Of a stretch of 64,000 nucleotides of DNA, positions 12,476 to 32,963 are shown in pieces. The DNA comes from an uncultured Gemmatimonadales bacterium. Lineage in GTDB: Bacteria; Gemmatimonadota; Gemmatimonadetes; Gemmatimonadales; GWC2-71-9. Below the pieces are notes generated by a model that worked only from the letters and a program-made list of their open reading frames with translations, was not told where the DNA came from and searched no databases. The position numbers and the translations under genes were made by a program. Each line of letters opens with the position of its first letter. Positions within the stretch are counted from its first letter, which is position 1. The DNA lies in assembly GCA_963761885.1 (NCBI GenBank), contig CAVXIN010000004.1:17994-81993 (forward strand). Reading direction: 5' to 3'.

Positions 12476-13500
12476 GCCGGCCTCCGCCCCGATCGCGCGC
12501 AAACAGGTGGTCGCCGGGGCGATCGGTGCCGCGGTCTCGCTCGCCTTGCTGCTCTGGGCGTTTCGCGGCGTTCACATCGGGGAGGTCTTCCGCCAGATCC
12601 GCGAGGCCGATCCCTGGCCCCTCGCACTCGGCGTGGTGCTCGCCTCGATCACCTTTCCCATCCGATTGATTCGCTGGCGGCTGCTGCTGCGCGAGGAGTC
12701 GGGCGCCGCGCTGAGGCCGTGGCCGCTCTGGCACGCCACGGCGATCGGCTTCATGGCCAACAACATCCTGCCCTTCCGCGCGGGCGAGCTGGTGCGCGTC
12801 TTCGCGGCCACCAAGCTTTCCGGCGTGCGCTTCACCGCCGCCATGTCCTCGGTCGCGGTGGAGCGGGTCTTCGACGGGCTCGCCGTCATCGGCCTGCTGG
12901 CTGCGGGATTGCTCATGTCCGACTTGCCCGCCGGCGTCGTCGTGGGCGGGGTGTCGCTGGCGCGCGGCGCCCAGATGGCCGGCCTGCTGTCACTCGCCGC
13001 ATTGATCGCCGCCGGCGCGGTCGTCGCGTTTCCACTGGCGGCGGAGCGAGCGGTGCGCGGCGTGCTCCCGGCCGGAGGGCTCACCGATCGACTGGTCGGC
13101 ATGATCGACGGCATCCGCCACGGCCTGGCATCGCTCCGGTCGCCCGCCCTCCTGCTCGGCGTGATCTTCTGGTCCGTCGACGCTGTGGGCCGTGAACGCG
13201 ATGGCGATGTGGGTGAGCTTTGCGGCGTTCGATATCCCGGTCAATTACGGTGGCGCGCTGGTGCTTCAGGGGGTGCTCGTAATCGGAATATCGGTCCAGC
13301 TGACTCCGGGATTCGTCGGCCAGTTCGAGGCGGCGGTGGTCGCCGCGCTGGCGCTGTACGGAATTCCCAACGATGTGGCCTCTTCCTATGCCGTCGCCTT
13401 TCACGGCGCCACGTTCATTCCGATCACCCTCGCCGGTGCCTGGTCCCTCGCCCGCACTCCCGTGGCCCTGAGCGACCTGCGCGGCATCCAGCGATCGTGA
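12462..13500 (+). CDS. UPF0104 / lysylphosphatidylglycerol-synthase TM-domain (flippase-like) protein (indel near 13180)
   Basis: IRLIRWRLLL, IGFMANNILPFRAGELVR, SVAVERVFD; C-terminal half in frame 13192..13500 (TPGFVGQFEA). Confidence 0.85.
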
Positions 13501-14390
13501 CCGACACCGCGGTCGCCGTCAGGGCGCACGCCAAGATCAACCTCCTGCTGCGCGTGCTGGGCCGCGAGACGGATGGCTACCACGGGCTGGAGACGCTCTT
13601 CTGCCTGGTGAGCCTGGCCGACGAGCTGCGAGCCGAGCGCCTCGAGGGGCGCGGCGTCGCGATCGAGGTGGAGGGGGCGGAGGTCGGACCCGCCGCGGAG
13701 AACCTCGCCGTGCGCGCGGCGACGGCGGTGCTCGCCGCAACCGGGGACCGGTTCGGCGTACAGCTGCGATTGACGAAGCGCATCCCGGTGCGCGCGGGCC
13801 TGGGCGGCGGCTCCAGCGATGCGGCGGCGGCGCTTCTCGCGGTCAATCGCCTCGCGGCCAACGCGGTTCCCCGCCATGAGCTGCTGCAGTTCGCCGCCCG
13901 GCTCGGCGCCGACGTCCCGTTCTTCCTCTCCGGCGCGAGCCTTGCACTCGGGTGGGGCCATGGCGACCGGCTGCTCCGGCTCCCCGCCCTGCCCTCCGCG
14001 CCGGCGCTCCTGCTCACCCCGCCCATCGCCATCGCCACGGCGGACGCGTACGCGTGGGTGGATGAGGCTCGGGTCTCGACGGGACGTCGCGGAGCGGTCG
14101 CGCTGGACCTCGACGCGCTCTCGACCTGGGGAGACATCGGCCGCATGGCCGGGAATGACTTCGAGTCGGTGGTGTTCGGGCGTCATCCGGCCGTGCGCGC
14201 GGCCTTCGAGGCATTGGCGGGCACACGGCCGCTGGTCTGTCGGATGAGTGGATCGGGCTCGACGCTGTTCGCCGTCTACCGCTCGGAGCGAGACCGGGAG
14301 GATGCCCGCATGATGCTCGGCCGGAAGCACGGGACCGTCACCGCCGTCGAGACCCTCGCGGGGCCGCCGGCCGGCGCGGAGCCGATATAG
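13497..14390 (+). CDS. ispE: 4-diphosphocytidyl-2-C-methyl-D-erythritol kinase
   Basis: AHAKINLLLRV, KRIPVRAGLGGGSSDAAA, LGADVPFF, MSGSGST; GTGA overlap with the upstream stop. Confidence 0.95.
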   Translation: MTDTAVAVRAHAKINLLLRVLGRETDGYHGLETLFCLVSLADELRAERLEGRGVAIEVEGAEVGPAAENLAVRAATAVLAATGDRFGVQLRLTKRIPVRAGLGGGSSDAAAALLAVNRLAANAVPRHELLQFAARLGADVPFFLSGASLALGWGHGDRLLRLPALPSAPALLLTPPIAIATADAYAWVDEARVSTGRRGAVALDLDALSTWGDIGRMAGNDFESVVFGRHPAVRAAFEALAGTRPLVCRMSGSGSTLFAVYRSERDREDARMMLGRKHGTVTAVETLAGPPAGAEPI

Positions 14391-14403: not shown

Positions 14404-14474
14404 TGGCCCTTCGTCCAATGGCAGGACAGCGGACTTTGGATCCGTTAATGGAGGTTCGAATCCTCCAGGGCCAA
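14404..14474 (+). tRNA. tRNA-Gln(TTG); CCA not encoded
   Basis: Acceptor stem TGGCCCT/AGGGCCA, D arm GTCC-aatggca-GGAC, anticodon arm GCGGA-ctTTGga-TCCGT, T arm GGAGG-TTCGAAT-CCTCC. Confidence 0.97.
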
Positions 14475-17422: not shown

Positions 17423-17584
17423 CCGCCGCGCTCCCCCTGTACTCCAGGCTCCAACCATCCTTGCCGTGCCCCGTTTCGGGCCCTAGACTAGACGGCCATC
17501 CCCAGTGTGGCCCTGGTCCTCAGCCAATCGAGTGTGACTCCCAATCCCGACCGAGCCCCCCAACGCTCACCGGAGGCCTTCCTC

Positions 17585-18775
17585 ATGAAGCGGAAGCTCT
17601 TTCTCGGTTCGTGCCTGCTCTTCGTCCTCGCCACAGTCGCGTGTCAGGACCAGCGGACCGAGCCCTCGTCCCCGGCATCCACGGCGCTCGCCGAGCTCAG
17701 CAAGCGGTCGTCGCCGGTCGCCCACCTGAAGCAGCGGAAGGGAACGCTCAGGCTTCCCTCATCGGCGTGGGCGGCGGACCTGCGGGTCCCGAGAGCGACT
17801 CGCAACGTCATTGATCCAGGCGATCACGTCTGTGACCCCAATCCTTCGCCGGTCGTCAGCATTTTCGTCAATGAGTTCGTGGAATTCGCCACGGAAGAGC
17901 CGGCGATCTTCGACCTGCTCTATAACCAGGTCTGGGCCGACCTTATCCCGGGGTGGGAAGCCCAGTTTCTCCTCACCGATGACTCGAATCAGTCGTTCGG
18001 CTACACCGGGGAGTTCACCCATGTTCTCCTGAAGACCGAGCGGGATACCAAGCGGTTCTGGGACATTCCCTCGGACGACATCCTGTTGCTGGCGATGAAG
18101 GGCACCATGCTGAACGACCCCGAGCGGGTCGCGACGACGTATCAGCTTCCCTTCATCCCTCCGTTCTTCGGGCTTTCCGAGGCGGACGCGAATTTCGTCG
18201 CCTCGCTGGTGCGGCAGGCGATGCTCGATTCCGAGGTCCTCGACGGCGGCAACCACACGCTGTTCAGCTTCAACGCGTTCGCGTTCGGCTCATCGGACGG
18301 CTCGATCCAGGATCGGATCGTCATGGGCGACGGCATCATGGAGGCGTACCGGGCGGTGGGATTCGGCGATGTGGCGCCCCAGGCGATCTACGCCCACGAG
18401 TTCGCGCATCACATCCAGTTCGAGAACGAGTACTTCAACGATCCGGTCGAGGGCGCCACTACCGAGGCGGAGCTGACCCGGTACACCGAGCTGATGGCCG
18501 ACGCGATGTCCGCCTACTACCTCACGCACAAGCGGGGCGCGACCATGAACAGGAAGCGCGTCGCCCAGTTCCTGCGGGTGTTCTTCGAGATCGGTGACTG
18601 TGCCTTCGACAATCCCGGGCACCACGGCACGCCGAACCAGCGGATGCGCGCGGCCCAGTTCGGCTTCGACGTGGCCGACCAGGCGCAGAAGCAGGGACAC
18701 ATCCTGACGTCCGAGCAGTTCCACGATCTCTTCGTGGCGGCCTACGGCAGCCTCATCGCTCCCGACGCCACCTGA
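17585..18775 (+). CDS. Zincin metallopeptidase lipoprotein (YpfJ-like neutral zinc peptidase motifs)
   Basis: Lipobox ATVAC; AHEFAHH (HExxH), ELMADAMS (third ligand E), HHGTPNQRMRA; GGAGG upstream of ATG 17585. Confidence 0.8.
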   Translation: MKRKLFLGSCLLFVLATVACQDQRTEPSSPASTALAELSKRSSPVAHLKQRKGTLRLPSSAWAADLRVPRATRNVIDPGDHVCDPNPSPVVSIFVNEFVEFATEEPAIFDLLYNQVWADLIPGWEAQFLLTDDSNQSFGYTGEFTHVLLKTERDTKRFWDIPSDDILLLAMKGTMLNDPERVATTYQLPFIPPFFGLSEADANFVASLVRQAMLDSEVLDGGNHTLFSFNAFAFGSSDGSIQDRIVMGDGIMEAYRAVGFGDVAPQAIYAHEFAHHIQFENEYFNDPVEGATTEAELTRYTELMADAMSAYYLTHKRGATMNRKRVAQFLRVFFEIGDCAFDNPGHHGTPNQRMRAAQFGFDVADQAQKQGHILTSEQFHDLFVAAYGSLIAPDAT

Positions 18776-18835: not shown

Positions 18836-21800
18836 TCAGTTCGACAGCGTGATGGACCGCTCCGGCGAGCAGGCCGTCGTGCTCCCGACCTGACAGATCT
18901 TCACCCGCCATGTTGCCGTGCCGACGAAATTCGTCGTGGTGGTGTGCCGGCCGTCATTCGGCGTGCTGTTGATCCGCACGCCGTTGCGGTAGAAGTCCAC
19001 GTTGGTTCCCGTGGCCCCCGACCAGAGGTGGGTGATGTAGTGCTTGGTGGCGTCGGTCTTCCCGGTGATCGACAGGGTGATCGAGCCCGACGGCGCCGAG
19101 GTGACCGTCACCGAACTCGTGCGCTGATGCTGCGCCGCCGAGATTGTCGGTCACGGTGAGAACCACCGTGTAGGTCCCCGCCGCGGCGTAGGTACGGCTC
19201 GGGTTCTGCGCCGTGGAGGTGGCGCCGTCGCCGAACGTCCAGCTCCAGGCCGTGACGGACCCGTCCTGATCCGTGCTCTGGTCCGTGAAGGCGCAGGCGA
19301 GGTTGGTGCAGCTCACGGCGAAGTTGGCGACCGGATTCATGTTGGGTGGAGGGCCGCCAGGGGTGATCTGCTTGCTGAGCGTGGCCTGCAGCCCGTCGTC
19401 GTCGGTCACCGTGAGGGCGACGAGATACAGACCTTCGCTGGCGTAGGTGTGCGACGGATTCTGCTCATCGGCCGAGGTCTGATCCCCGAAGTCCCAGTGC
19501 CATGCGGCCACGTTGCCGTCCGGATCCTGACTCCCATCCGTGAAGCTGCAGTCCAGCCCGTCGCACACGCTGGTGAATGCGGCACTGGGCGGCTGGTCTT
19601 CCGGCTCGCCGAGCGTCACCTTGCGCGTGGCCGAGCCGCGGGCGCCGAGATTATCGGTGACCGACAGAGTGACCGAGAACTCCCCGCCCGCGCCGTAGGT
19701 GTGCGATGGATTCCGCAGTGTCGAGGTGGAGCCGTCCCCGAAATCCCATTGCCATCCGGTCACGGTGCCGTCCGGATCCGCGCTTCCATCGGCGAACCGG
19801 CAGGTGCTGCCGGCGCAGGTCGGCGTGAACGCCGCGTTGGGCGACGAGTTGTCAGGAGGCGCGCCCCCGGCGAACGTCGCCGTCGCCGGGTTGGAGCAGA
19901 TGGTGGTCCCCGCCTCGCAGACCTTGAAGATGTAGGTAGCCGGCCCGGTGAAGTTCCTGGAGATGGATTGCTTGCCGTCGTTCGGGGTGCTCTGCAGCAC
20001 CAGCCCGTTCCGATAGATGTAGACCGACTGTCCCAGCGCTCTCGACCAGGTCAGCGCGGTGACTTGCTTGTCCCCCTGGGTCTTCGTGGTCAGCGTGAGG
20101 CCCAGCGGGTACTGCGGTCCCGGCACCGTCACCTGTCGTGAGAGCGTCGCGGACGCGTCGTCGCCGTCCTTGGCGGTCAAGGTGACCGTGTAGGTACCGC
20201 CCGCCGTGTACGCGTGGTGCGGATCGCGCGCCGACGTGCCGTCGCCATCGCCGAAGGTCCATTGCCAGCCGCTGAGATTCCCGTCCGGATCGCTGCTCTT
20301 GTCCGCGAAGGTGCAGTTCATCCCACCGCACCCGACGAGAAACGCGGGCACCGGTGGCGCGTTGGGCCCCGGACCCGGGTCGGAGGTGGCGCTGACTTTC
20401 ACGATCCTGCCGACGGACGGCACGCCGGACTGATTGACCAGAAACAGCATGTAGTGTCCCGGGGGCGCGCGAGTCCCCCCGCCGGCGCCGAGATCGTGAG
20501 ACCGCCGGCATCCCGCGTGAACGTCAGCCACACCAGGCGCGTGTTCATGTCGAAGGCATGAGTCACCGAGCCCAGTCGGATGAGACTTACCTTCGCGATG
20601 TCCGCGGCATCGGGAGTCTCCACCCGGAAGTCGGTGCCGTAGCCGAGCTGGGTCGGCGCGTCCGTCACGGTCGGACGCAGTCCGCGCGAGAGATACGGCG
20701 GAGAGAACAGCTCGGCGCTGAACTCGTTCACCTGCCCCGCCGCGTCCCCGCTGCCCGCGTGAAGCACACGGCCGTCCGGCAGGAGCAGTGAGGTCGAGTG
20801 ATATGCGCGGCTGACCGCGTTGCTCGCCAGCGTGGTCCAGATGCCGGTCAGCGGGTTCCAGATCTCCGCCGCCCGGACGGCCTGCGAGACGTCGTTCTGG
20901 ATGGCGGATCTGGTTCCCCCCGTGACCAGCACCTCACCCGTCGGCAACAGCGTGGCGTTGTGGTTCCTCCGTGGGAAAGCCATGGAGCCGGTCCACCGCC
21001 AGGTCGGCCCGGCGGTGTTGAGGTCGATGACCTCGGCCGTGTTGGTGGTGCGCCCGCCGCCGGCGTAGAGGATCTTCCCCGCCTCGTACATCACCGCGGT
21101 GCCGTAGGATCGCGCTCCATACAGGCGCTCCCCGACCGTAGTCCACGACCCGTTGCCCGACGTGTTCAGATAGCGTGTAGTCTGCTGCTCCCCCGCGTAG
21201 AACACCTGTCCGTTGGGCGCGACGAACGTGCGGGGGTAATACGGAAGAACCAGGCTTGCGCTGTTGAGCTGGCGGATCCCGCTGGGAGACCACACCTCGG
21301 GTTCCGCTACCTCATCCCCCACTTCGTCGCGGCCGGCGAGAATGACGACCGAGCCGTTCGCCAGAGTGGTGTTGGTGGGATACCAGCGACCGCGCCGCAT
21401 CGGCGCGGACTGGGTCCAGCCGCCCGTAGCGGGCGAAAAGATGCTGATGTCAGGGATCCCGTGGTCAGCGGAGATGTGCCCTCCCGAGACCATCAGGCGG
21501 CCGTCCGAGAGGAGCGAGTGACCCGAGCAGAAGAGCTTGGCCTGGCTGGGAACCTGGGTGAACTCGCCGGTGCCGGGATCCCAGATCTGCGGCACGCCGG
21601 TGAGTCCCCACGCGAGGATTCGCCCGTCGGGCATCAGGCTCGCGTGAAGGGCGACGATAGGCCAGGAAAACGGTGCGGACCATTCGCCCGACTCGGCCGC
21701 CGTCGCCGATGCGAGATTCGCCGCCGCATGGGCACCACACGGTCGCTTGAGGTTGCGGCGAAAGGCGACCCGCTGGTCGTCCCGGTACAGCTCCACCGTT

Positions 21801-22128
21801 CCCTGCTTGCCGGTTTCCAGCTCGGTTTCGCTGTGACCCGGATCCTCGGCGGGTCCGGGGGTAGGGTGATCCCGCCGGTCTCGGAGCTGCCGACGACCCG
21901 GTACGTGATATGCACGGTGCTTCGGGTCGAGTTAGTCGCCAGGAACTTGTTGCCGCAGACGTAGATCAGGTCCAGCGGCGCGAGATTGCCCGCCTCCAGC
22001 GTCTGGAGGTCCTGGGGGGGCACCTCCGGCCGGCCGGCGGGCGCTTGCGATCCGTCTTCGGAACAGGCGGCAGCCATGAGGGCGATGCCGAGGCAGGCCA
22101 AGGAGAGCGAACGCCGATCTGAGGGCAT
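18836..22128 (-). CDS. Copper radical oxidase (AA5/galactose oxidase-like) lipoprotein with Kelch propeller, DUF1929, 4 PKD and 2 FN3-like domains (indels)
   Basis: Lipobox MAAAC; LFCSGH (Cys of the Cys-Tyr cofactor), RGRWYPT (Tyr), RAYHS (Tyr/His), GSVTHAFDMN (His); PKD motifs WxFGDG x4. Confidence 0.88.
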
Positions 22129-22488
22129 GAAAATCTCCATCACAACGTCCGACCCTGGGTCGGGACTGCCGGATTTTTGAAGGGGATCACCCGAGGGGGC
22201 GGGCCGCCGTCGCGGATGGACTGCGGCGGGGGTCGTCGAGAACAGTCGGGCGGTCGGTCCTGTCGTAGCATGGGATGTGCCGACGCGCAAAGGATTTGGC
22301 CCCTGCAACACCGGGGTGTTGCAGCGAGCGATTGGCGATCGAGGCACCGTTACGCATACCCAAGCTTAACAACCGCTTACCGTGTGGATGTGATGTGATA
22401 CCTGAAGGAGTCAATACTTCCTCCAATTGCGTCCGCCAGAGGCGGGCCCCAATATTCGCTGCGGCCATGCTACGACACCCGGTGTGAC

Positions 22489-25293
22489 ATGATGGCAACG
22501 ACGCTCGCCTGTCCGACCTGCGCCGAGCCGGTACGACTCGCCGACCGCTTCTGCTCGCGGTGCGGCGACGAGTTGTCGTTGACCTCTCATCCCACCGCGC
22601 TGCTGGAGCGACAGCCACCCCGAGGACGATCCCACCTCGCCGTGGGCCGAAGTGGTCCAGCGGCTTCGGCGTGCCACCGCCGGCGAGTTCGAGGTCGGGC
22701 GCGAGCTCGGCCGCGGCGGAATGGCGGCCGTCTTCCTCGCCCATGAGATCTCGCTCGATCGCAAGGTCGCGATCAAGGTGATGTCGCCGGGCCTGCTGAT
22801 GGGCGACGGAATGATCGATCGCTTCAAGCGCGAGGCGATCACCATCGCGCACCTCAATCACCCCAACATCGTGTCCTGCTATTCGGTGCGCCAGGCGGGC
22901 GGGCTGCACTTCTTCGTGATGCGCTACATCCGCGGCCGCTCGCTCGATCAGCTGATTCAGGATTCCGGGCGCCTCCCGCTCCCGATCGTCCGCTCGATCC
23001 TCTGCCAGGTCGGCTCGGCCCTCACCTACGCCCACCGCTCGCGGGTGGTCCACCGCGACATCAAGCCGGCGAACATCCTGATCGACGAGGACGGCAACGC
23101 CGTCGTCACCGACTTCGGGATCGCCAAGGTGGCGGAGCTGCCGGGCCACACCCATACCGGGGCCCTGGTCGGAACGCCGGCCTACATGAGTCCCGAGCAG
23201 TGCAGCGGCGAGGACGTGTCGGGCGCGTCCGACCAGTACTCGCTGGGCGCCGTCGCCTACGAGATGGTGACCGGGACCGCTCCGTTCACCGGCTCGACAC
23301 TGACAGTGATGCAGTCCCAGGTGGAGCATGCACCGCCTGCCATCCGGGATCGTTGCCCGGAGTGCCCCGCCGATCTCGAGGCCGCCATTCTGCGCATGCT
23401 GGCCAAGGATCCGGCGGAGCGGTTCCCGAACATGGCGGAGGCCAAGGCCGCGCTCGGCGCCGTTCCCCTGATGGAGGACGATCCGCTGCTCGCCGAGCTC
23501 TCCCGGCTGGCCGCCGGCCGCCTCGTCGGCGACGCCGGCCGAGGCTCGGCCATCGGGGCGCACCTCGCCCGTCCCCGCCTCGCCGCCTTCGAGCACCCGG
23601 TCGCGGGATCGGCGGGCGCGCCCGCAGCATCACCATCCTTCCGCCGCCCGCCGAGCTCGTGCACCGGCGACGGCTTCGCCCTCGTCGCGCTGGTCCGCGG
23701 GGACCGCGGGGTCCCCGCTCCCCGGCCGGACGATCGAGTGGACGACCGATGCGCCCGACGTGCTGCATATCGACCGCAATCGAGGAGTGGCCACGGCCGT
23801 CGCCGCGGGGACCGCGCTCCTGTCCGCGAGCTGCGAAGGCGTCCAGGCCCGGGTGCCGGTCTTCGTCCCGGCGGTGGGCCTCGAGGCGCTGGATTCGGCG
23901 ACCGACCGCCGCGCCGCGAGCATCCAGATCTCCGCGCCACCGAAGTCGCTGCGCGCGGGGGACTCCTTCGTCCTGACCGCCACCCCGCTGGACGCCTCCG
24001 GCACGCCGCTCTCCGAGGGGAGCGTGCTCTGGAGCAGCAGTGACGTAGGCGTGGCCGTCGTCGCCGTCGGGGGCTGGGTGGCCGCCCTCGGGCGCGGCCA
24101 GGTGGTGCTCACGGCGACCCGCGACGAGGCCTCCGCCTCGGTGACGGTCGAGGTCGGCCACGCGATCCCCGCCACCCGGCCGCAGCGGCAGCAGAAGCCT
24201 GCGATCGAGGCGGAGGACGCGGAGCCCACGCGGCGAGCGCGCTGGCGTCGGAAGGGCTCCCGGCTCCGGACGGCGGTGTTGCAGGGGGGCGCCGCGACCA
24301 TCGCGGTGATTGGCGGCCTCTACTTGTTCGGCGGCCTGCGCGACTTCAGTTGGCATCGGGGGGGACGATCGGCGATTCCGGCCGATACCGTCGCCGGCAT
24401 CGCCCCGGCGGGCGCAAGCGTGAAGGCCGACTCGATCCCATCCATCGGTCGCGACTCGACGCCGAGTCGCGCTCCGCGACGAATCCGGCGTGTTCCCCAC
24501 GCGGCTCCCGTGGAGCCGGCCTCGGTGAGCATCGCGCCTCACGATGCGGTTGAAGCGGGCGATACCGTCACCCTCACCGCGGAGGTCCTCGACGCTCAGG
24601 GGGCACCGATCGCAGGCGCGGGCGTCATCTGGAGATCGAGCCAACCGAACCTGGCCGCGGTGGACAGCGTTACCGGCCGGGTGAGCGCGAAGGCCCCAGG
24701 CACCGCGTTGATCACGGTGCTCAGCGGCGAAGAGTTCGCGACCTCGTATCTCCGGGTGCTGCCCGATGCCGAGGCGCCTCGCCGACACTCAGGGTTACTC
24801 GCCGATTTCCCCCGAGGCCTCGAGCGAAGCCGAGCCACAGGAGATCGCGATGGCTCCGACCACTCCCCCTCGCGCCTCCGCTCCCCCCAGGAAGACTGCT
24901 CCCGCGCGAGCCCCGGAGCCCTTCGACCGCCGCGCGCTGGAGTCGAGAATGCGACAGGGCGTGGAGGAGTGTTACGGCGCTATTCGGTCGAAGGACGTGG
25001 AGCGCGTGACCCGCATGTACAGTCCGAAGAGCTACGCGGATGAGGACAAGCTGACGCGACTGGTCCGGATTCTCCGGACCGAGCCGTGGAAGGCCAGCGT
25101 CGGGAAGCGGGTGGATGGCGCCCGGGAGATGAACGCCGCGGCGCCGGCGGCGGAATTCAGCTTCCGGCTCGCGTGGACCGGAATGCATGGGGGGCGCCTC
25201 AGCAGTCAGCCGATATTCCGCGCCGAGTTCTCACGCAGCGCTGACGACTGGACGATGTCCAGCTGCCGCATCGTAGGCTCTCCGAAGCTCTGA
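22489..25293 (+). CDS. Hanks Ser/Thr kinase with N-terminal zinc ribbon, three BIG2 Ig-like domains, TM and C-terminal NTF2-like domain (indels)
   Basis: CPTC..FCSRC; LGRGGMAAV, VAIK, HRDIKPAN, TDFG, GTPAYMSPEQ; BIG2 motifs VLWSSSD..VAVV, VIWRSSQPNLAAVDS. Confidence 0.82.
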
Positions 25294-25682
25294 CAGGGCG
25301 TGGCGAGCAGCTCGATGATGCCGGTCCGCTCATAGACCGTCAGCTGGAACGCGGTCCGGAGCACGCCGGGCTCGACGAATGAGACGATCAGCCGCCGTCG
25401 GGGGGCGTGGCCCCGCACCTCATAGGCGACTCGCCCTCCTCCCCAGGGGCTCGGTGTCTCGGAGAGCGGCAGGCACTCCCGCCTAGCGGCGTGGCCCGCG
25501 CCTCGCCCGAACGTGATGAAGCCATCAGTAGACAGATCGAAATGATCGTACCGCGCCCCGAAGCGTTCGAACTCGAATCCGACCGGTAGCGGCCCGGTCG
25601 TCTCGTGTTCCCGTAGCACCATGGTGGTGGCGGTGGTGTCGGATTCGGCCGGGGTAGATATCGAACCGGCTAGCGTTACCAT
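25206..25682 (-). CDS. Hypothetical protein resembling a degenerate nidogen-like beta domain
   Basis: LPVGFEFERFGARY..LSTDGFITF, RVAYEVRGHAPRRRLIVSF, FQLTVYERTGIIE; 3' end overlaps the kinase on the other strand. Confidence 0.5.
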   Translation of the reverse strand: MVTLAGSISTPAESDTTATTMVLREHETTGPLPVGFEFERFGARYDHFDLSTDGFITFGRGAGHAARRECLPLSETPSPWGGGRVAYEVRGHAPRRRLIVSFVEPGVLRTAFQLTVYERTGIIELLATPCQSFGEPTMRQLDIVQSSALRENSARNIG

Positions 25683-25802
25683 TTGGCGTCACTCCTTCGG
25701 CTGAGCAGAGCATCGAGTTCGCCGGAAGCCTCGCCCCCGGCGGTCAAGCCGACGTCAAGTTGCTGTGATCCCGTAGCCTACGACCCCCACACTGAGGTCC
25801 GT

Positions 25803-27707
25803 GTGATCCTCTGCCGTACGCTCGGTCCGATCGAAGTGACCGTGGACGGCGGTCCTGCCCCAGCCGAGCTGCTGTGGCGAAAGCACCTCGCGCTGCTGAT
25901 CTACCTGGCGCGGTCTCCGCGCCGGCTTCGAAGCCGCGATCACCTGGTCGGGTTGCTCTGGGGCGACCGGGGAGAAACGGCTGCGCGTCACTCCCTGAGC
26001 GAAGCGCTGCGGGTCATTCGCCGCCATGTGGGCGACGCTTCCGTGGATACCACCGCCGGTCAGGTGCGGCTCGCCGAAGGCGCCGTCGAGGTGGATGTCG
26101 ACGAGCTTGAGGTGCTGGCGGACGCGGGCCAATGGCAAGCGGCATCCGAGCTGGTGGCGGGAGAATTTCTGGAGGGTTTCTCGGTACCGGGCGCGTCGGA
26201 GTTCGAGGACTGGCTCGCCGCCGAGCGGGCGGGGTGGCGACGCCGCGGGGTCGAGGTGCTGGTGCGCTGCAGCGATGCCCTGGCTCAGGGTGGCAGCACT
26301 CACGAGGCCTCGGCACTGGCCGCGCGCGCCATCGCGCTGGAGCCGACCTCGGAGCTGGCCCTCGGCGCGGCGCTGCGCTGTCTCTCGCTGGCCGGCGACC
26401 GGGCCGGCGCGCTCGACCTCTTCGACCGGTTCCGGGGTCGTCTGTCGGAGGAGCTGGGCACCTCCCCCAGCCCCGACACCGATGCCCTGGTGGAGCGCAT
26501 CCGGAGTGAGCGCGGGCCCCGAGCCGGCGGGGCCGCGGGCTGGGGGGAGGGAGAGCCGGTCGTGCGCGCGCCGCTGGAGGGCCGAGCCACTGAGCTGGGC
26601 CGGCTGCTGGCGGCGGCGCAGGCCGCCGCGCGAGACAGCCGCGCCACGATCGTCGTGGTGGAGGGGGAGTCCGGCGTCGGCAAGACTCGGCTCCTGCAGG
26701 AAGTGACCGCACGCCTGAGGCTGGACGGCTTTTCCGTGGCGGCGTCCCGGGCGGTCGAGGCAGACCGGTCCGAGTCGTGGAGCGGATTGCTGGCTCTCGC
26801 GCGGGGGGGCCTGGTCGGTGCCGCCGGCGTCGGTGGCGCCCCACCTCAGGCGCTGGCCGCCTTCGCGGGCGCGCTGCCCGAGTGGCGCGAGCGATATCCG
26901 GGCGTCGCCCTGGCGGACGCCCAGCCGGTTGCTCGGGCCATGGCGGGGACGCTTCGGGCGGCCGCCGACGAGCGGCCCGTGGTGGTGGCGATCGACGACG
27001 CGCAGTGGCTCGATCCCGAATCCGCATCGGCCCTCGGCGGCCTTCTGCGCGACCTCGCAGACGCGCGGATACACCTTCTGCTCGCGGTCGTTCCCCACCC
27101 CGCTCGACCCGAGCTGGACGAGCTCCGCTCCCGGATCGGCCGCGACCTGCCGGGCGAGGTGATTCGCCTCCGGCCGCTCGATCGCGCCGCCCTGCGGCGC
27201 CTGGCGGAGCGCATGCTGCCCGGGTACGAGTCCATGGCGGTGGATCGCGTCACTCGGCGCGTGGCCACCGATTCAGCGGGGATGCCGCTGCTCGCGGTCG
27301 AGCTCCTCCGTGCCGTCGCGCTCGGCCTCGACCTCGGCACCATCTCCGAAGCCTGGCCGGAACCGCTCCGTACCCTGGACCAGACCTTGCCGGGCGAGCT
27401 GCCCGACGCGGTCGTCGCCGCGATTCGGATCGGGTTTCGCCGCCTGAGTCCCACGGCGCAGCGGGTGCTGGCCGCGGCATCGGCATTGGGAGATCTGGTG
27501 CCGGCTCCCGAGCTCGAGCGAGCCCTCGGGCTCGGTCCCGAGGAAACCGCGCTGGCGCTCGACGAGCTGGAGTGGCACCGGTGGGTGGTGGCGGAACCGC
27601 GCGGGTATTCGTTCGTCGCGCGGCTGGTGCGGCGGGTGATCGAACGCGACATGCTCACGCCCGGCCAGAGGCAGCGCGTGTTGGCGGCCGTCGGGCGTAC
27701 GGAATAG
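25803..27707 (+). CDS. SARP/BTAD transcriptional regulator fused to a STAND AAA ATPase, with no C-terminal sensor
   Basis: RTLGPIEVTVDG, ALLIYLA, RDHLVGLLWG, ARHSLSEAL (wHTH); EFEDWLAAER, EELGTSPSPDT (BTAD); GESGVGKTRL, IDDAQWLD. Confidence 0.9.
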   Translation: MILCRTLGPIEVTVDGGPAPAELLWRKHLALLIYLARSPRRLRSRDHLVGLLWGDRGETAARHSLSEALRVIRRHVGDASVDTTAGQVRLAEGAVEVDVDELEVLADAGQWQAASELVAGEFLEGFSVPGASEFEDWLAAERAGWRRRGVEVLVRCSDALAQGGSTHEASALAARAIALEPTSELALGAALRCLSLAGDRAGALDLFDRFRGRLSEELGTSPSPDTDALVERIRSERGPRAGGAAGWGEGEPVVRAPLEGRATELGRLLAAAQAAARDSRATIVVVEGESGVGKTRLLQEVTARLRLDGFSVAASRAVEADRSESWSGLLALARGGLVGAAGVGGAPPQALAAFAGALPEWRERYPGVALADAQPVARAMAGTLRAAADERPVVVAIDDAQWLDPESASALGGLLRDLADARIHLLLAVVPHPARPELDELRSRIGRDLPGEVIRLRPLDRAALRRLAERMLPGYESMAVDRVTRRVATDSAGMPLLAVELLRAVALGLDLGTISEAWPEPLRTLDQTLPGELPDAVVAAIRIGFRRLSPTAQRVLAAASALGDLVPAPELERALGLGPEETALALDELEWHRWVVAEPRGYSFVARLVRRVIERDMLTPGQRQRVLAAVGRTE

Positions 27708-29447
27708 TTACTTGACCTGGACGATCCTGGCGATGGACGGCACCCCGGAGCCATTCAGGATGAACAGCATGTAATGACCCGGCGGCGTCACCCTGCGATC
27801 GGTCGGAGCGGTCACCGTGAGCCCGGTCGCGTCGCTCGTGAATCCGAGCGCCTGGTAGCGCTGATTCATATCGAAGGCGTGCGTGACGCTCCCCAAACGG
27901 ATGAGGCTGACCTTGGCGATGGCCGCCGCGTTGGGGGTGAGCACGCGGAACCCCACGGTGTAACGGACGACGCCCGGCGCCTTCGTGATCGTCGGCCGCG
28001 CCCCGAGGAACAGGTAGGGCGGCGAGAAAAGCTCGGCGTTGCGCTCGGGCGGCAGACCGGCCCCGTCACCGCTCCCGGTATTGAGCACTCGTCCGTCCGG
28101 CATGAGGATGGACGTGCCGTGATAGCCCCGCACCACCGCATTGCTCGCCAGCGTCTTCCAGGTACCGCTCGAAGGCGACCAGAACTCCGCGGCATGTACC
28201 GGTTTGGTCAGGTCATTGAAGGTGGTGCCCGCTACCCCGCTCGTCGCCAGCACATCACCGGTTGGCAAGACGGTCAGATTGTGGTGCCGTCGCGCGAACG
28301 CCATCGACCCGGTCCACTGCCATGCCGGCTTGGCCAGGTTCAGGTCGATGATCTCGGCCGTGTTCGTGGTGCGGCCGCCCCCGGCGTAGAGCACCTTGCC
28401 AGGCTGGTACATCACCGCGCTGCCGTATTCGCGATTGGCGAACAGGCGCTGGCCCACCGTGGTCCACTTCCCGGGGCTCGCCAGATTGAGATAGCGCGTC
28501 GTCCGATCCTCACCGGCGTAGAACAGCTTGCCGTTGGGGGCCAGGAAGGCGCGGGGATAGTACGGGAGGTTGAGGCTGGCGCCGGTCAGAACCCGGATCG
28601 TGCCGTTGGTCCAGACCTCCGGCAGCGGCACATTCACGCCCGCCTCGTCACGACCCGCGATGATCACCACTTCGCCCTTCGCCATGGTGGTGTTGGTCGG
28701 ATACCACCTGCCCCGCTGCATCGGGGCCGCCGAGGTCCAGCCGGTCGGCCCGAACAGGTTGATGTCGGGAAGGCCGTGGTCATCATCGATGTGGCCCCCA
28801 GCCACGTGCAGCCTGCCGTCGGCCAGGAACGCATGGCCGCTGCAGAACAGCAGGTCGGCGCTGGGAGACGGAGTGAACGAGTTATTGGCCGGATTCCAGA
28901 TCTGGGGATCGCCGAATTTGCCCCACGACAGTACCCGCCCGTCCTTCAGCAAGTGCAGATGGACGGCCACCACTGGCCAGGCCATGGGGGCGCCCCAGGC
29001 TCCCGCATCGGCGACCGCCGCGGCCGTGAGCGACGCGCCCGGTGCCGCAGGCGTGCAGGGCACACCACCGTTCTCTCGCGTCCGGACCCGCGTGCGGTTG
29101 AAGAACAGCTCCACGGTCCCGCGCTGTCGGGTCTCGATCAGTGATTCGCTGAAGGCCGGGTCGTCAGCCGGTGCCGCCGCGATGGTGACCGTGCCCTCCT
29201 CCTCGGTCCCCACGACTCGATAGGTGACGCTCACCGGCACCGAGTAGGCATTGGAGACCAGGAATCGGTTCCCGCACACGTAGGTCAATCGAATCGGCTG
29301 ATCGCTGTCGTCCTGGCCCACCGGCGTGAGCGGGGGATCGGTCCGGGGTCCGGCGCCCGGCTCCGGACCGCCGACGCACGACGGGAGAGCCGCGACGAGG
29401 GCGGCGAGCACCACTCCACCTACCCATCGAAACCGGCGACCCCGCAT
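27708..29447 (-). CDS. Copper radical oxidase (AA5/galactose oxidase-like) lipoprotein, paralogue 2 (intact ORF, no PKD tail)
   Basis: MRGRRF.. plus lipobox LPSC; LFCSGH, RGRWYPT, RGYHG, GSVTHAFDMNQR, PPGHYMLFIL..GVPS (DUF1929). Confidence 0.92.
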   Translation of the reverse strand: MRGRRFRWVGGVVLAALVAALPSCVGGPEPGAGPRTDPPLTPVGQDDSDQPIRLTYVCGNRFLVSNAYSVPVSVTYRVVGTEEEGTVTIAAAPADDPAFSESLIETRQRGTVELFFNRTRVRTRENGGVPCTPAAPGASLTAAAVADAGAWGAPMAWPVVAVHLHLLKDGRVLSWGKFGDPQIWNPANNSFTPSPSADLLFCSGHAFLADGRLHVAGGHIDDDHGLPDINLFGPTGWTSAAPMQRGRWYPTNTTMAKGEVVIIAGRDEAGVNVPLPEVWTNGTIRVLTGASLNLPYYPRAFLAPNGKLFYAGEDRTTRYLNLASPGKWTTVGQRLFANREYGSAVMYQPGKVLYAGGGRTTNTAEIIDLNLAKPAWQWTGSMAFARRHHNLTVLPTGDVLATSGVAGTTFNDLTKPVHAAEFWSPSSGTWKTLASNAVVRGYHGTSILMPDGRVLNTGSGDGAGLPPERNAELFSPPYLFLGARPTITKAPGVVRYTVGFRVLTPNAAAIAKVSLIRLGSVTHAFDMNQRYQALGFTSDATGLTVTAPTDRRVTPPGHYMLFILNGSGVPSIARIVQVK

Positions 29448-29517
29448 ACGGCACTCCGGGCTGAGGCGAATCCGAACCTGACCTATCCTACCCCGCGCCT
29501 GTCAGGAGAGAAAGCAC

Positions 29518-29547
29518 TCGGCCCCGCCGGTGAACCGGCGAGGCCGA
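29518..29547 (-). terminator. Intrinsic terminator-like hairpin after the PKD lipoprotein gene
   Basis: TCGGCC-c-CGCCGG-tgaa-CCGGCG-a-GGCCGA, followed on the minus strand by GTGCTTTCTCT. Confidence 0.6.
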
Positions 29548-29568
29548 TGTGTTGCTGAGCGTGGAGCG

Positions 29569-30563
29569 TTACGGCACGGGGGTGGCCCGGATGGTCAGGA
29601 CCAGGTCGTTGAAGTCCGGCTCGGGCGGGGTGGCATCTTCGCCGTCATCGAACTCCAGCGTCCACTCGGGATACGAGCCGACCACGCGGAGCGCGGGCGC
29701 CACTTCCTGCTTCAGCGACCCCGAGATGACCTCGGCGTTGAGCTCGGTGCCGGCGGCGTACGCATTCCCGTTGTTCAGGTCCCACGACGTCCCCACCGCG
29801 GGCGTGTAGCAGCCGTCGGTGATGAGCACTTCCTCGGCCGGCTGGGTGATTCGGAACGTGTTGTTCCGGGCGGTGCACTCCCGGCTCTCGAGCGTCACCG
29901 TGACGATGGCGTCGTCCTCGAGGAGCAGCGTGCAGTCCACTCCGTCACAGGTCAGGTGCGCCGACGGCGACACCGTGAAGCTCGCGGTCTTGGTGCTGGG
30001 CGCCCCACCGGCGTCGGTCACCGTCAGAGTCGCCACGAACTGGGTGAGCTCGTCCACGTCGTACGCATGCGCCGGCGGATTCTGCACCGTGCTGGTCGTC
30101 CCGTCGCCGAAGGTCCAGGCCCAGGAGGTCACCGGTCCGGTGCTCTCGTCGGTGAAGGTGCATTCGAGCGAGAAGCAGGTGACGGTGAAATCGGCCACGG
30201 CCGCGCTGGCGGCCGGCTCGGTCACGACGACCGTCTCGGTGACCGTCGCCGCGTCGTCCCCGTCGTCGTCGGTGACGGTCAGGGTGACGTCGTAGCTGCC
30301 CGTCGGCCGTGAAGGCGATCTCGCGGGTTCCGGCCGGCAGAGGTCTGACCGTCCCCGAACTCCCAGCTGAACGACTCCACCTGGCCGTCGCTGTCGCTCG
30401 ACAGGTCGGTGAAGGTGCAGTCGAGGTCCACGCACTCGTACGTGAAGCTGGCCGTCGGGGCAACGTTATCCGGATCGGGGTCCGGATCGTTCGAGTCGCT
30501 GCAGCCGGCGGCGGCAAGGCCGAGCACCAGCAGTCCAGCATGCTTCCAGCGCGTCGCGATCAT
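29569..30563 (-). CDS. PKD-domain lipoprotein A with acidic C-terminal domain (indels near 30310-30345)
   Basis: MIATRWKHAGLLVLGLAAAGC lipobox; two PKD repeats (FTYECVDLDCTFTD..WEFGDG); ends WTLEFDDGEDATPPEPDFNDLVLTI. Confidence 0.82.
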
Positions 30564-30622
30564 AGGCTCCTGCCACGGGTTTCGAGGTGATCCACCGGCC
30601 TGCGGTCCTGCACCGGGGGTGT

Positions 30623-30648
30623 CCGCCGGGCCCATTCGGGCCCGGCGG
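30623..30648. terminator. Perfect 11-bp GC hairpin between the two PKD lipoprotein genes
   Basis: CCGCCGGGCCC-attc-GGGCCCGGCGG. Confidence 0.5.
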
Positions 30649-30676
30649 CGGGGGTACTTCCCCAGGTTGTACGGCG

Positions 30677-31701
30677 TTATTCGGTCGCGGTAACCGTCAT
30701 GATGATGTCGTTGAAGTCCGGCTCGCCGGGCCCGGTCGGGTCTTCACCGTCATCGAACTCGAGCGTCCACTGCGGATAGGCGCCGCGTCACGCGCAAGGC
30801 AGGCGCGATGCGGTCCGGATCGTCCGACCCGGAGATCATCTGGGCACGCAGCTCGGTGCCGGCGGCATACGCCGCCCCACCGTTCAGGTTGAAGACGTCG
30901 CCGGCGGCCTGGCTGCAGCCGTCGGTGAACACCGTCTCGTCCGGGTCCGGCGCGGTGATGACCAGCGTGTTGCCGTCCGCGGTGCAGTCCAGGCTGGTGA
31001 TGGTCACCGTGACGGTCGCCGCGTTGGTGAGCGTCAGACCGCATTCCACGAAGGTGCCGCTGCCGTTGTCGCAGACCGTCTGCGCCGGCGGGGCGACGGC
31101 CACCGTCTTGGTGATCGTCGTCGGTGGCGCCGTCATCGTCGGTCACCGTCAAGGCGACGTCGAAATCGGTCAGCTGCGGTGACGCCGGTGTAGGTGTGCA
31201 CCGGGTTGGCCTCGGTGGACGTATTGCCGTCGCCGAAGTTCCACGCATAGGTGGCGATGGTGCCGTCGGCGTCGCGTGCTGGCGTCGGTGAACGTGCACT
31301 CTTCCGCGCTGCAGATGAAGGTCGTAGTCCGCGGTCGGAGGCAGGTTGGTGGCCGAGGTGGAGACGGTCGACGGTCTGGGTCGAGGTGCTGGTCTCGCCC
31401 GCGGCGTCGGTCACCGTCAGGGCGACGTCGTAGGCGCCCGCCGCGGCGAAGGTATGGGCCGGGTTCTGCTCTGCCGACGTGGCGGCGTCGCCGAAGTCCC
31501 AGGCGTAGGTGTCGATGTCGTCCGCCCCATCAGGGTCGGTGCTGGCATCGGTGAAGGTGCAGGCGAGGGCGGTACAGGTGAACGTGAAGTCGGCCGTCGG
31601 GGCCTCGTTGGTCGGCGGGTCGCCGCCGTTGTCGTCACCGCACGCGCCGCCCGCCAGGCCAGCGCAACCGTGAACAGCAGATTCCGATGGAACGATCGCA
31701 T
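30677..31701 (-). CDS. PKD-domain lipoprotein B, paralogue of A (several indels)
   Basis: MRSFHRNLLFTVALA..ACGDD; PKD repeats (YAWDFGD, YAWNFGDG); ends YPQWTLEFDDGEDPTGPGEPDFNDIIMTVTATE* (TAA at 30679-30677). Confidence 0.78.
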
Positions 31702-31962: not shown

Positions 31963-31992
31963 TTGACGTAACCCCGTGGTGGTGGCTAGGTT
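31963..31992 (+). promoter_or_regulatory. Sigma70-like promoter for prs
   Basis: TTGACG-18 bp-TAGGTT, ending 13 bp before ATG 32006. Confidence 0.5.
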
Positions 31993-32005
31993 TGCGGGCT
32001 CGAAT

Positions 32006-32963
32006 ATGACGGACCTGTCGCTGTCGCGCAGCCAGATGCTGCTCCTGAGCGGGTCGGCCAACCGCCCCCTAGCCGAAGAGGTGGCCGCTCATCTAGGGCA
32101 GCCTCTGTGCCAGGTCACGCTCCGGCGCTTCGCCGACGGCGAGATGTTCGTCAAGATCGACGAGAACGTGCGCGGGCGGGACGTCTACATCATCCAGCCC
32201 ACCAATCCCGCCGGCCGAGAACATGATCGAGCTGCTGCTCCTCATGGACGCGGCGCGAGCGGGCCAGCGCCGCCCGGGTCACGCCGGTCATCCCGTATTT
32301 CGGCTACGCGCGGCAGGACCGGAAGGACCAGCCGCGGGTGGCGATCAGCGCCAAGCTGATGGCGAACATGGTGTCGATGGCCGGGCGCGGACCGGGTGCT
32401 GGCGATGGATTTCCACCAGCACCAGCTGCAGGGGTTCTTCGACCTGCCGGTGGACCACCTGTACGCGGCGCCGGTGTTCGTGAGCCACTACCGGCAGAAG
32501 GCGCTGCGGGATCTGGTCATCGTGGCGCCGGATGTCGGCTCCGCGAAGATGGCCCGCGGGCTTCGCCAAGCGGCTCAACGCGTCGCTCGCGATCATCGAC
32601 AAGCGGCGTCCCTCCGCCAACGTCGCGGAGGTGCTGAACGTGGTCGGCGAGGTGACGGGGAAGGACTGCCTCATCCCCGACGACATGATCGACACCGCCG
32701 GGACGATGGCCGAAGCGGTGACGGCGCTCAAGCGGCTGGGGGCCGAGGACGTGTACTGCTGCGCCACCCACGCCCTGCTGTCGGGGCCGGCGGTGGACCG
32801 GCTGATGGCGTCGCCGGTGAAGGAAGTGGCCGTCACCAACACCATCGCCATCCCGCGCGAGCGCACCTTCGACCGGCTCAAGGTGCTGTCCATCGCGGGG
32901 CTGTTGTCGAAAGCGATCGGCTACACGCACAGCGATCAGTCCGTCAGCTCGCTGTTCGATTAA
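32006..32963 (+). CDS. prs: Ribose-phosphate pyrophosphokinase (indels)
   Basis: [67 protein letters not shown]. Confidence 0.95.

Follow-up and report, generated by a model that had tools for sequence, protein, structure and literature searches.

Do seven neighboring genes of an uncultured bacterium form one machine for handling surface glycans, or do they only share a place on the chromosome? This question is raised by a 64,000-nucleotide stretch of DNA (NCBI GenBank assembly GCA_963761885.1, contig CAVXIN010000004.1, positions 17,994 to 81,993; herein referred to as the window), in which two genes for copper-radical oxidases, two genes for lectin-like lipoproteins with PKD domains, a regulator, a Ser/Thr kinase, and a small gene lie side by side. 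The source assembly (3.2 Mb, 57% complete, with the window within its contig C4) has its named relatives in Gemmatimonadales. Comparison with related genomes indicated that the seven genes lie in a gene-insertion hotspot between prs and ispE/tRNA-Gln with three separately inherited parts, not a fixed seven-gene machine. The reading tentatively favored here, to which a probability of roughly 45% is assigned, is that the lectins and an expanded oxidase family act on the cell's own surface glycan, being co-resident but separately transcribed, with the regulator cassette probably unrelated to them. The seven genes are the following.

18836..22128, minus strand: oxidase 1, with a lipoprotein signal, an unnamed N-terminal domain, a copper-radical propeller and E-set, four Cys-paired PKD repeats, and two copies of an unnamed domain of about 90 aa
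22489..25293, plus strand: Ser/Thr kinase, with an N-terminal CxxC..CxxC motif, a Pkinase domain, Big_2 domains, and one hydrophobic segment; frameshifted
25206..25682, minus strand: small gene of 158 aa with no known family, between the kinase and the regulator
25803..27707, plus strand: SARP-type regulator with a weak Trans_reg_C match, BTAD, and AAA_16; its stop codon adjoins that of oxidase 2
27708..29447, minus strand: oxidase 2, an intact 579-aa lipoprotein (Cys24) with an unnamed N-terminal domain (Cys58, Cys131) and a copper-radical domain
29569..30563, minus strand: lectin-like lipoprotein B, with a signal, two Cys-paired PKD domains, and a C-terminal domain (29572-29970) of predicted LecB/PA-IIL fold
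30677..31701, minus strand: lectin-like lipoprotein A, with the same layout as B and several single-base indels

A scan for open reading frames (ORFs) and families found all seven genes where a first-pass annotation of the sequence had put them, with the oxidases and PKD lipoproteins on the minus strand and the regulator and Big_2 kinase on the plus strand. The same annotation had described them as one candidate module. The borders of the slot that holds them, and two hairpins within it, are the following.

14404..14474, plus strand: tRNA-Gln(TTG), directly downstream of ispE (about 13497-14390); left edge of the slot
29518..29547, minus strand: terminator-like hairpin of 13 pairs, 11 of them G-C, with a T-rich tail, between lectin gene B and oxidase 2
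30623..30648, minus strand: GC-rich hairpin lacking a T tail, located between lectin genes A and B
31976..32963, plus strand: prs, divergent from lectin A; right edge of the slot

This slot was compared in 40 of the 91 lectin-bearing genomes of the genus, with at most 20 kb read from the first lectin gene onward. An oxidase was found in 28 of these lectin-anchored slots, genes for GT4, Wzx, or sulfotransferases in 26, and the regulator-kinase pair in only 6. Thus, co-location across genomes, which the first-pass annotation had proposed as a check, holds for one pair of parts: oxidase and lectin genes occur together in these 28 slots and adjoin directly in two other genera (G021 and G005, in each of which two lectin genes are followed by an oxidase gene), but the regulator-kinase pair is rarely with them. 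The proposal of a single transcription unit was not supported. Downstream of the last lectin gene, 31 of the 40 slots have a strong terminator-like hairpin with a T-rich tail, versus 0/40 in each of five shuffles. After the first lectin gene, a strong hairpin, as a rule without a T tail (one is present in 2), was found in 30/30 intervals; it often has a common CCCGCCGG...CCGGCGGG core and is possibly an mRNA-stabilising or processing element. A scan for Sigma-70 promoters remained at chance level (2 found, 0.9 expected).

In the regulator, BTAD and AAA_16 match above the cut-off and Trans_reg_C below it, and no TPR sensor was detected; judged by these domains, the protein is of SARP-STAND type (winged-helix, BTAD, and AAA ATPase). 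Its orthologue was found in 87 of the 103 genus genomes. Outside the slot, 20 loci of the regulator were compared; the kinase stands beside it in 16 and an oxidase in 2, and the small 158-aa gene travels with the pair. Because the kinase is mostly kept in these loci and the oxidase rarely is, the kinase, the small gene, and the regulator are a cassette of their own, probably unrelated to the lectins and oxidases. A stretch of the small protein, F.FERFG..Y....LSTDGFITFG, may resemble NIDO domains.

These counts bear directly on the module as first described, in which the lectins and oxidases form one outer-surface complex switched by the embedded regulator and kinase. This proposal draws on the seven-gene order, which is whole in two relatives (L001 and L002) and has two GT4 genes inserted in two others (L124 and L149), as well as on the regulator and oxidase 2 genes, whose stops abut; a similar convergent oxidase-regulator pair was found at another locus (L162). 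Against it, two of the six slots with the cassette lack oxidase 1 and one lacks any oxidase, the regulator is rarely beside an oxidase elsewhere, and a PAS hybrid histidine kinase takes the slot instead in 13/40. Additionally, no oxidase-lectin fusion was found among the best 120 of 198 longer lectin-domain homologues, and the PKD type common to oxidase 1 and the lectins is used elsewhere too. A place of the regulators in the module is therefore not supported, and the whole proposal is highly unlikely.

The PAS hybrid kinase occurs in slots L112, L122, L123, L126, L130-L132, L140-L142, L145, L146, and L148, mostly right after the tRNA-Gln gene and, in 10 of them, directly upstream of oxidase genes; it is a better candidate for an oxidase regulator in those lineages. 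The slot of the window itself holds extra cargo without a counterpart in L001 (14495-18775), namely a kinase-TPR gene on the minus strand, a TPR fragment, and a gene for an HExxH zinc-peptidase-like lipoprotein (17507-18775) with a weak NCBIfam match.

In the window, oxidase 2, the regulator, and the small gene are the only ones of the seven with unbroken ORFs; in L001, all seven genes are intact. Alignment to L001 showed that the breaks are mostly single-base indels. Oxidase 1, the start of which is possibly at 22140, is broken near 21852, 20477, and 19134, and lectin gene B has two single-base insertions near 30320 and 30303. The orthologues in L001 are single ORFs of 1104 aa for oxidase 1, 949 aa for the kinase, and 339 and 329 aa for lectin lipoproteins A and B, the latter two having 53% identity to each other there. 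One break is contradicted by a near-identical short-read contig (2 differing letters in 684), and the housekeeping gene prs, which we take from its sequence to encode ribose-phosphate pyrophosphokinase, is likewise split across two frames. Because of the single-base pattern, the short-read contig, and the split prs gene, the breaks are likely assembly errors; true pseudogenes were rejected on the basis of this pattern and contig together with the intact L001 orthologues.

Oxidase 2 matches Glyoxal_oxid_N, Kelch_6, and GO-like_E_set above the Pfam cut-offs. Its motifs are LFC (C202), RWYP (W248, Y249), YH (Y442, H443), and TH (H523), and oxidase 1 carries the same ones. Residues C202, Y249, Y442, H443, and H523 align with those of GlxA and of galactose oxidase 9G8H and correspond to the hallmark of AA5 enzymes, i.e., an axial Tyr, two His, and the Cys/Tyr pair of the radical cofactor (PMC11611005). 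All five were kept in 81/81 near-complete relatives (107 matches, from which 26 fragments or duplicates were dropped) and W248 in 80/81; the four motifs are present in 117/117 members of a larger set. Both proteins are accordingly classified by sequence as AA5-type copper-radical oxidases with a kelch propeller and E-set, and the earlier observation of two paralogues with complete catalytic positions is confirmed. These paralogues have 57.6% identity in L001 and belong to different subclades of the oxidase tree, which includes loci from this comparison only, without characterised AA5 reference members; a recent tandem duplication is thus ruled out.

Two other features reported for these proteins were only partly upheld. 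Both had been described as lipoproteins with RR in the leader. Among the matches listed, a lipobox-like motif was found in 101 of 120 oxidase homologues and the Tat motif RRxF[LI] in 0/120, both by a simple pattern and not by a signal-peptide predictor; Tat export is thereby ruled out as a family trait. Oxidase 1 does have four PKD repeats of the Cys-paired type seen in the lectins. However, the same type was found at two further places in the source genome (5 of 12 pattern matches), which rules it out as a private signal of partnership.

The oxidase family was found in 101 of the 103 genus genomes, including 46/46 of the high-quality ones, with 1-12 matches per genome if fragments are counted; the source genome has seven oxidase genes. 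One genome, G210, is unpublished and was used for tallies of this kind alone. In the taxonomic family, it was found in only 26 of 201 genomes. Among 117 distinct copies, a pattern search found 65 with the unnamed N-terminal domain and 21 with a PKD tail. In oxidase 2, the former domain covers approximately residues 50-135 (window 29031-29300), and its Cys58/Cys131 pair is invariant. Its profile matched only oxidase genes among the loci compared, and an atlas search with it gave no usable match. One oxidase on a contig labelled Amaricoccus (L024:9875-11680) nests in the Gemmatimonadales clade of oxidase 2, which may reflect transfer or mis-binning.

The first-pass annotation had also proposed Ca-dependent sugar-binding partners for the oxidases. 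The 133-residue C-terminal domain of the PKD lipoproteins in the window has no Pfam match. Its aligned relatives have four invariant Cys residues and a W-x5-DG...D-x-x-D motif at the end. An AlphaFold2 model reached a pLDDT of 95.5 with a 75-row alignment (36 from the single sequence). The top eight Foldseek rows for this model are LecB-type lectins (prob 1.0, E 0.003-0.006, none of them reaching E 0.001), and a VIA-align search of 48,161 chains placed thrombocorticin (Z 9.2) and LecB (Z 9.0) above the next unrelated row (Z 5.2). Atlas rows for the lectin domain had a score of 0.86, which is no more than a lead. Superposition with LecB aligned 107 residues at an rmsd of 3.3 (model 11-132 on LecB 1-114). 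The domain is therefore predicted to have the LecB/PA-IIL beta-sandwich fold.

In LecB-type lectins, two calcium ions are bound in an acidic hairpin, the site being completed by the C-terminus of a partner subunit (PMC1903359; PMC9700728). This site comprises the hairpin and Gly114 in LecB (PMC1903359) and D117-N119-D120 and the partner's C-terminus in thrombocorticin (PMC9700728). A D-x-N-D motif stands 9-12 residues before the C-terminus in 120/120 homologues of the window domain among the matches listed. The C-termini of the model and LecB align; the last residue varies, and the model is monomeric. The domain likely works like LecB, as a putative sugar-binding member of its family. PF07472 had no match at its cut-off, and only 1 of 29 lectin-domain sequences matched it, at E 0.12. 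DUF4114 (PF13448) matched 16 of these 29 at E up to 1 (best 1.7e-5) and did not match the window's own domain; this family was proposed to bind exopolysaccharide via calcium in Myxococcus PilY1.1 (PMC9109919).

The lectin domain was found in 91 of the 103 genus genomes, in 30 of 301 genomes of the phylum, and in some 275 database proteins (198 + 77) annotated only as "PKD repeat" or "hypothetical." Thus, the lectin-like acidic domain of the first proposal stands, together with a predicted fold. Obligate partnership is not supported, since in other genera the interval from prs to ispE can hold a lectin gene by itself and, beyond this genus, the majority of oxidase genes are solitary. In one genome of another genus (G005; L071:8413-9820), a tRNA-Gln gene lies between two lectin genes, immediately after the stop of the first, and the second lectin gene abuts an oxidase.

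A link between the oxidases and glycan synthesis appears outside the slot. In the source genome, two oxidase genes lie between a GT4 gene and genes for Wza, Wzc, cysNC, cysD, sulfotransferases, Wzx, and Wzy_C. The Wza-Wzc-cysNC-cysD-sulfotransferase cluster is located at G000:C6:92000-122000 (L064, L066), was also seen in L170-L209, and is common in the genus; Wzc was found in 59 of 65 genomes, with cysN directly behind it in 31 of 40 loci. Its gene content points to a sulfated exopolysaccharide as the product. In a sample of 40 loci fetched around the Wzc orthologue, and thus not picked by oxidase, an oxidase was found within the stretch read in 7, and in 5 of the 31 loci with at least 8 kb upstream. 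Given about 4.7 matches in a genome of 3.6 Mb, we roughly estimate a chance figure of 2-3%. Oxidases occur at the exopolysaccharide cluster more often than this rough figure, but in a minority of loci that are not independent by kinship. On the oxidase tree, the members from this cluster are spread over three separate places.

A different lipoprotein was found in 36 of the 40 Wzc loci, usually just upstream of Wza (for example, L009:6990-8891 and L064:15227-17117, and in L170-L209). It has approximately 620-650 aa, with Ig-like repeats and a C-terminal domain of about 290 aa with an invariant DEP motif, and has no Pfam or PDB match. We take the DEP motif to resemble the acid/base motif of clan-A glycoside hydrolases. 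This protein may represent an unnamed family and could be the actual core partner in the exopolysaccharide cluster.

The reading that lectins and oxidases act on the cell's own glycan is preferred because glycan genes occur in 26 of the 40 slots, because oxidases occur in the exopolysaccharide cluster, and because of the precedents of GlxA with CslA and of fbfB (see below). The two genomic observations also argue against an external substrate as the default, which the first-pass annotation had adopted. The oxidases and lectins would be exported as Sec lipoproteins. By analogy with their family, each oxidase would take up copper and self-form the Cys202-Tyr249 radical cofactor. It would then oxidise a primary alcohol to an aldehyde in a two-electron reaction, with reduction of O2 to H2O2 (PMC11611005). 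The lectins would form dimers, with each two-calcium site completed by the C-terminus of the other subunit. The substrate would be the cell's own, often sulfated, polysaccharide, which the lectins would hold. Gene neighborhood further suggests that the aldehydes could cross-link or tether this polysaccharide and that short and stalked oxidases could reach different depths of the glycan layer. A stronger form of this proposal is unlikely: genus-wide capsule processing, in which membrane-anchored dimers of LecB-fold lectins would hold the cell's sulfated Wzx/Wzy exopolysaccharide at the surface, and up to a dozen lipid-anchored oxidases, with stalks that differ in length, would convert its primary alcohols to aldehydes by which the layer is cross-linked or tethered.

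A number of observations weigh against the own-glycan reading. No glycan gene was found in the window's own slot, and the nearest marker is more than 30 kb away. No oxidase was found within the stretch read in 33 of the 40 Wzc loci, so an oxidase is not needed for that polymer. Within the slot, there is no positive association between oxidase and glycan genes: of the 29 slots for which the sequence reached ispE, 15 carry genes of both kinds, 6 an oxidase without glycan genes, 7 glycan genes without an oxidase, and 1 no gene of either kind. Beyond the genus, the majority of oxidase genes are solitary and lie in unrelated contexts. The slot also accepts unrelated cargo, some of which is presumably formate dehydrogenase, a sulfate transporter, and metal efflux genes; for this reason, the co-residence of the parts may be a hotspot effect. 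The 40-locus samples were picked by us for long contiguous sequence, and the slot counts are not independent because of kinship links among the compared genomes. For the lectin domain, the sequence score to LecB is insignificant (E about 0.9). The exact LecB register E-D-G-x-D-x-D-[YF]-N-D, for which our numbering of the hairpin is partly assumed, is present in only 22 of 70 slot domains, versus 10 of 12 in other genera. The window domains have D-D-G-E-D, an insertion, and then D-F-N-D, i.e., a longer acidic loop than LecB and an Asp at the position of its Glu.

Several of these points suit the explanation that no functional link exists: the lectin pair would have been settled beside prs for a long time, with oxidases, glycan genes, and regulators merely piling up at a tRNA-Gln insertion hotspot. 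A PKD-less lectin lipoprotein is indeed encoded alone between prs and ispE in other genera (L050, L051, L054), and the first 120 family genomes include 6 with the lectin domain only (four of these inferred from absence among the matches listed), 9 with the oxidase only, and 5 with both. The terminator-like hairpin after the lectins, the mixed cargo, and the 13 changes of slot label that the oxidase tree requires agree with this. On the other hand, oxidases are the commonest slot cargo and nearly always share the strand of the lectin genes, expansion of the two families is seen in one and the same genus, and in G005 the second lectin gene abuts an oxidase without a strong hairpin between them. 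We consider the absence of any link improbable.

Alternatively, the surface oxidases could have diversified for substrates outside the cell (plant or microbial glycans, alcohols, aldehydes) or for H2O2, with the lectins as adhesins on such material. The number of matches per genome, with varied N-terminal domains and stalks, is as expected for a substrate-diversified family; most oxidase copies are not beside glycan-synthesis genes; and fungal AA5 enzymes supply extracellular H2O2 (PMC11611005). However, when 141 unassigned slot ORFs were clustered and inspected by eye, without a family scan, no hydrolase, importer, or peroxidase was seen to recur. DyP peroxidase was found in 0/5 genomes searched, with no search for SCO or MauG-type peroxidases; the copper chaperone PCuAC was found in 2/5, distant from the oxidase genes. 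Moreover, the repeated arrival of oxidases in the exopolysaccharide cluster is left unexplained by outside substrates, which appear somewhat unlikely.

Action on the cell's own glycan thus remains the tentative choice, and the seven-gene module is corrected to a three-part hotspot, so that the locus is less surprising. Two sub-findings are solid: the genus-wide expansion of the oxidases, with its partial link to exopolysaccharide, and a lipoprotein branch of LecB-fold domains. No description of either was found in the literature covered, which largely excludes subscription journals. Characterisation of bacterial copper-radical oxidases beyond the two fungal subfamilies is scant, and their cellular substrates are an open question. 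This genus makes the question testable, as it supplies a large set of oxidases, a small intact expressible member, and a named candidate substrate. The unnamed domain of the database proteins likewise gains a specific prediction, that of a lipid-anchored LecB-type lectin. If true, the capsule-processing proposal would for the first time connect a copper-radical oxidase system with a Wzx/Wzy polymer and would give the LecB-type lectins their first lipoprotein branch.

Among known systems, the LecB/PA-IIL family (LecB, RS-IIL, BclA, BC2L-C, thrombocorticin) has 14-20% identity to the window domain. The acidic hairpin of the window-type domains, which ends in D-x-N-D about ten residues from the C-terminus, resembles the calcium-site hairpins of LecB and thrombocorticin. 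Unlike LecB, the C-terminal residue of the window-type domains is not Gly and their loop is often longer, and lectins of this type add the four invariant Cys residues, a lipoprotein signal, 0-2 PKD spacers, and an arrangement as a tandem gene pair.

Galactose oxidases of AA5_2 (1GOF, 9G8H/9G43) match oxidase 2 over the full length of the propeller and E-set (E 1e-33 to 6e-45) and have the same copper ligands. In contrast, 9G8H has RGYQS at the cross-linked Tyr where oxidase 2 has RWYP, and the window oxidases are lipoproteins in which no galactose-binding N-terminal module was detected. They cannot be taken to be specific for galactose. Bacterial AA5 enzymes beyond the two subfamilies were already known to exist (PMC11267884). 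One Gram-negative counterpart is the galactose-oxidase-like FbfB of Stigmatella aurantiaca, the gene of which adjoins a glycosyltransferase gene; it is likened here by description, and the available text of that report mentions no lectin neighbors (PMC3543389).

The best PDB sequence match of oxidase 2 is GlxA of Streptomyces lividans/coelicolor (PDB 4UNM, E 4.6e-46), which works with the cellulose synthase CslA (bioRxiv 2023.11.20.567928). No cslA-like cellulose synthase gene was found among the ORFs of the window region; the slots of the relatives were not scanned with a GT2 profile. Membership in the GlxA family was ruled out, as the window oxidases score 210.3 and 234.9 bits with NF052501, far under its curated cut-off of 800. 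They also differ from GlxA by the lipobox and by the unnamed N-terminal domain or PKD stalk, and the several oxidases per genome in this genus have Wzx/Wzy-type and GT4 neighbors. An insert of about 120 residues in GlxA (4unm 108-232, versus query 219-224) is absent from oxidase 2. According to a review, the extra domain of GlxA shields its copper site (PMC11611005). Because oxidase 2 lacks the insert, a more open copper site than that of GlxA is plausible. GlxA and the window oxidases nevertheless have in common the five copper and radical residues and the RWYP Trp beside the cross-linked Tyr, and they are alike in attachment to the cell envelope and, in many relatives of the window oxidases, in linkage to glycan genes.

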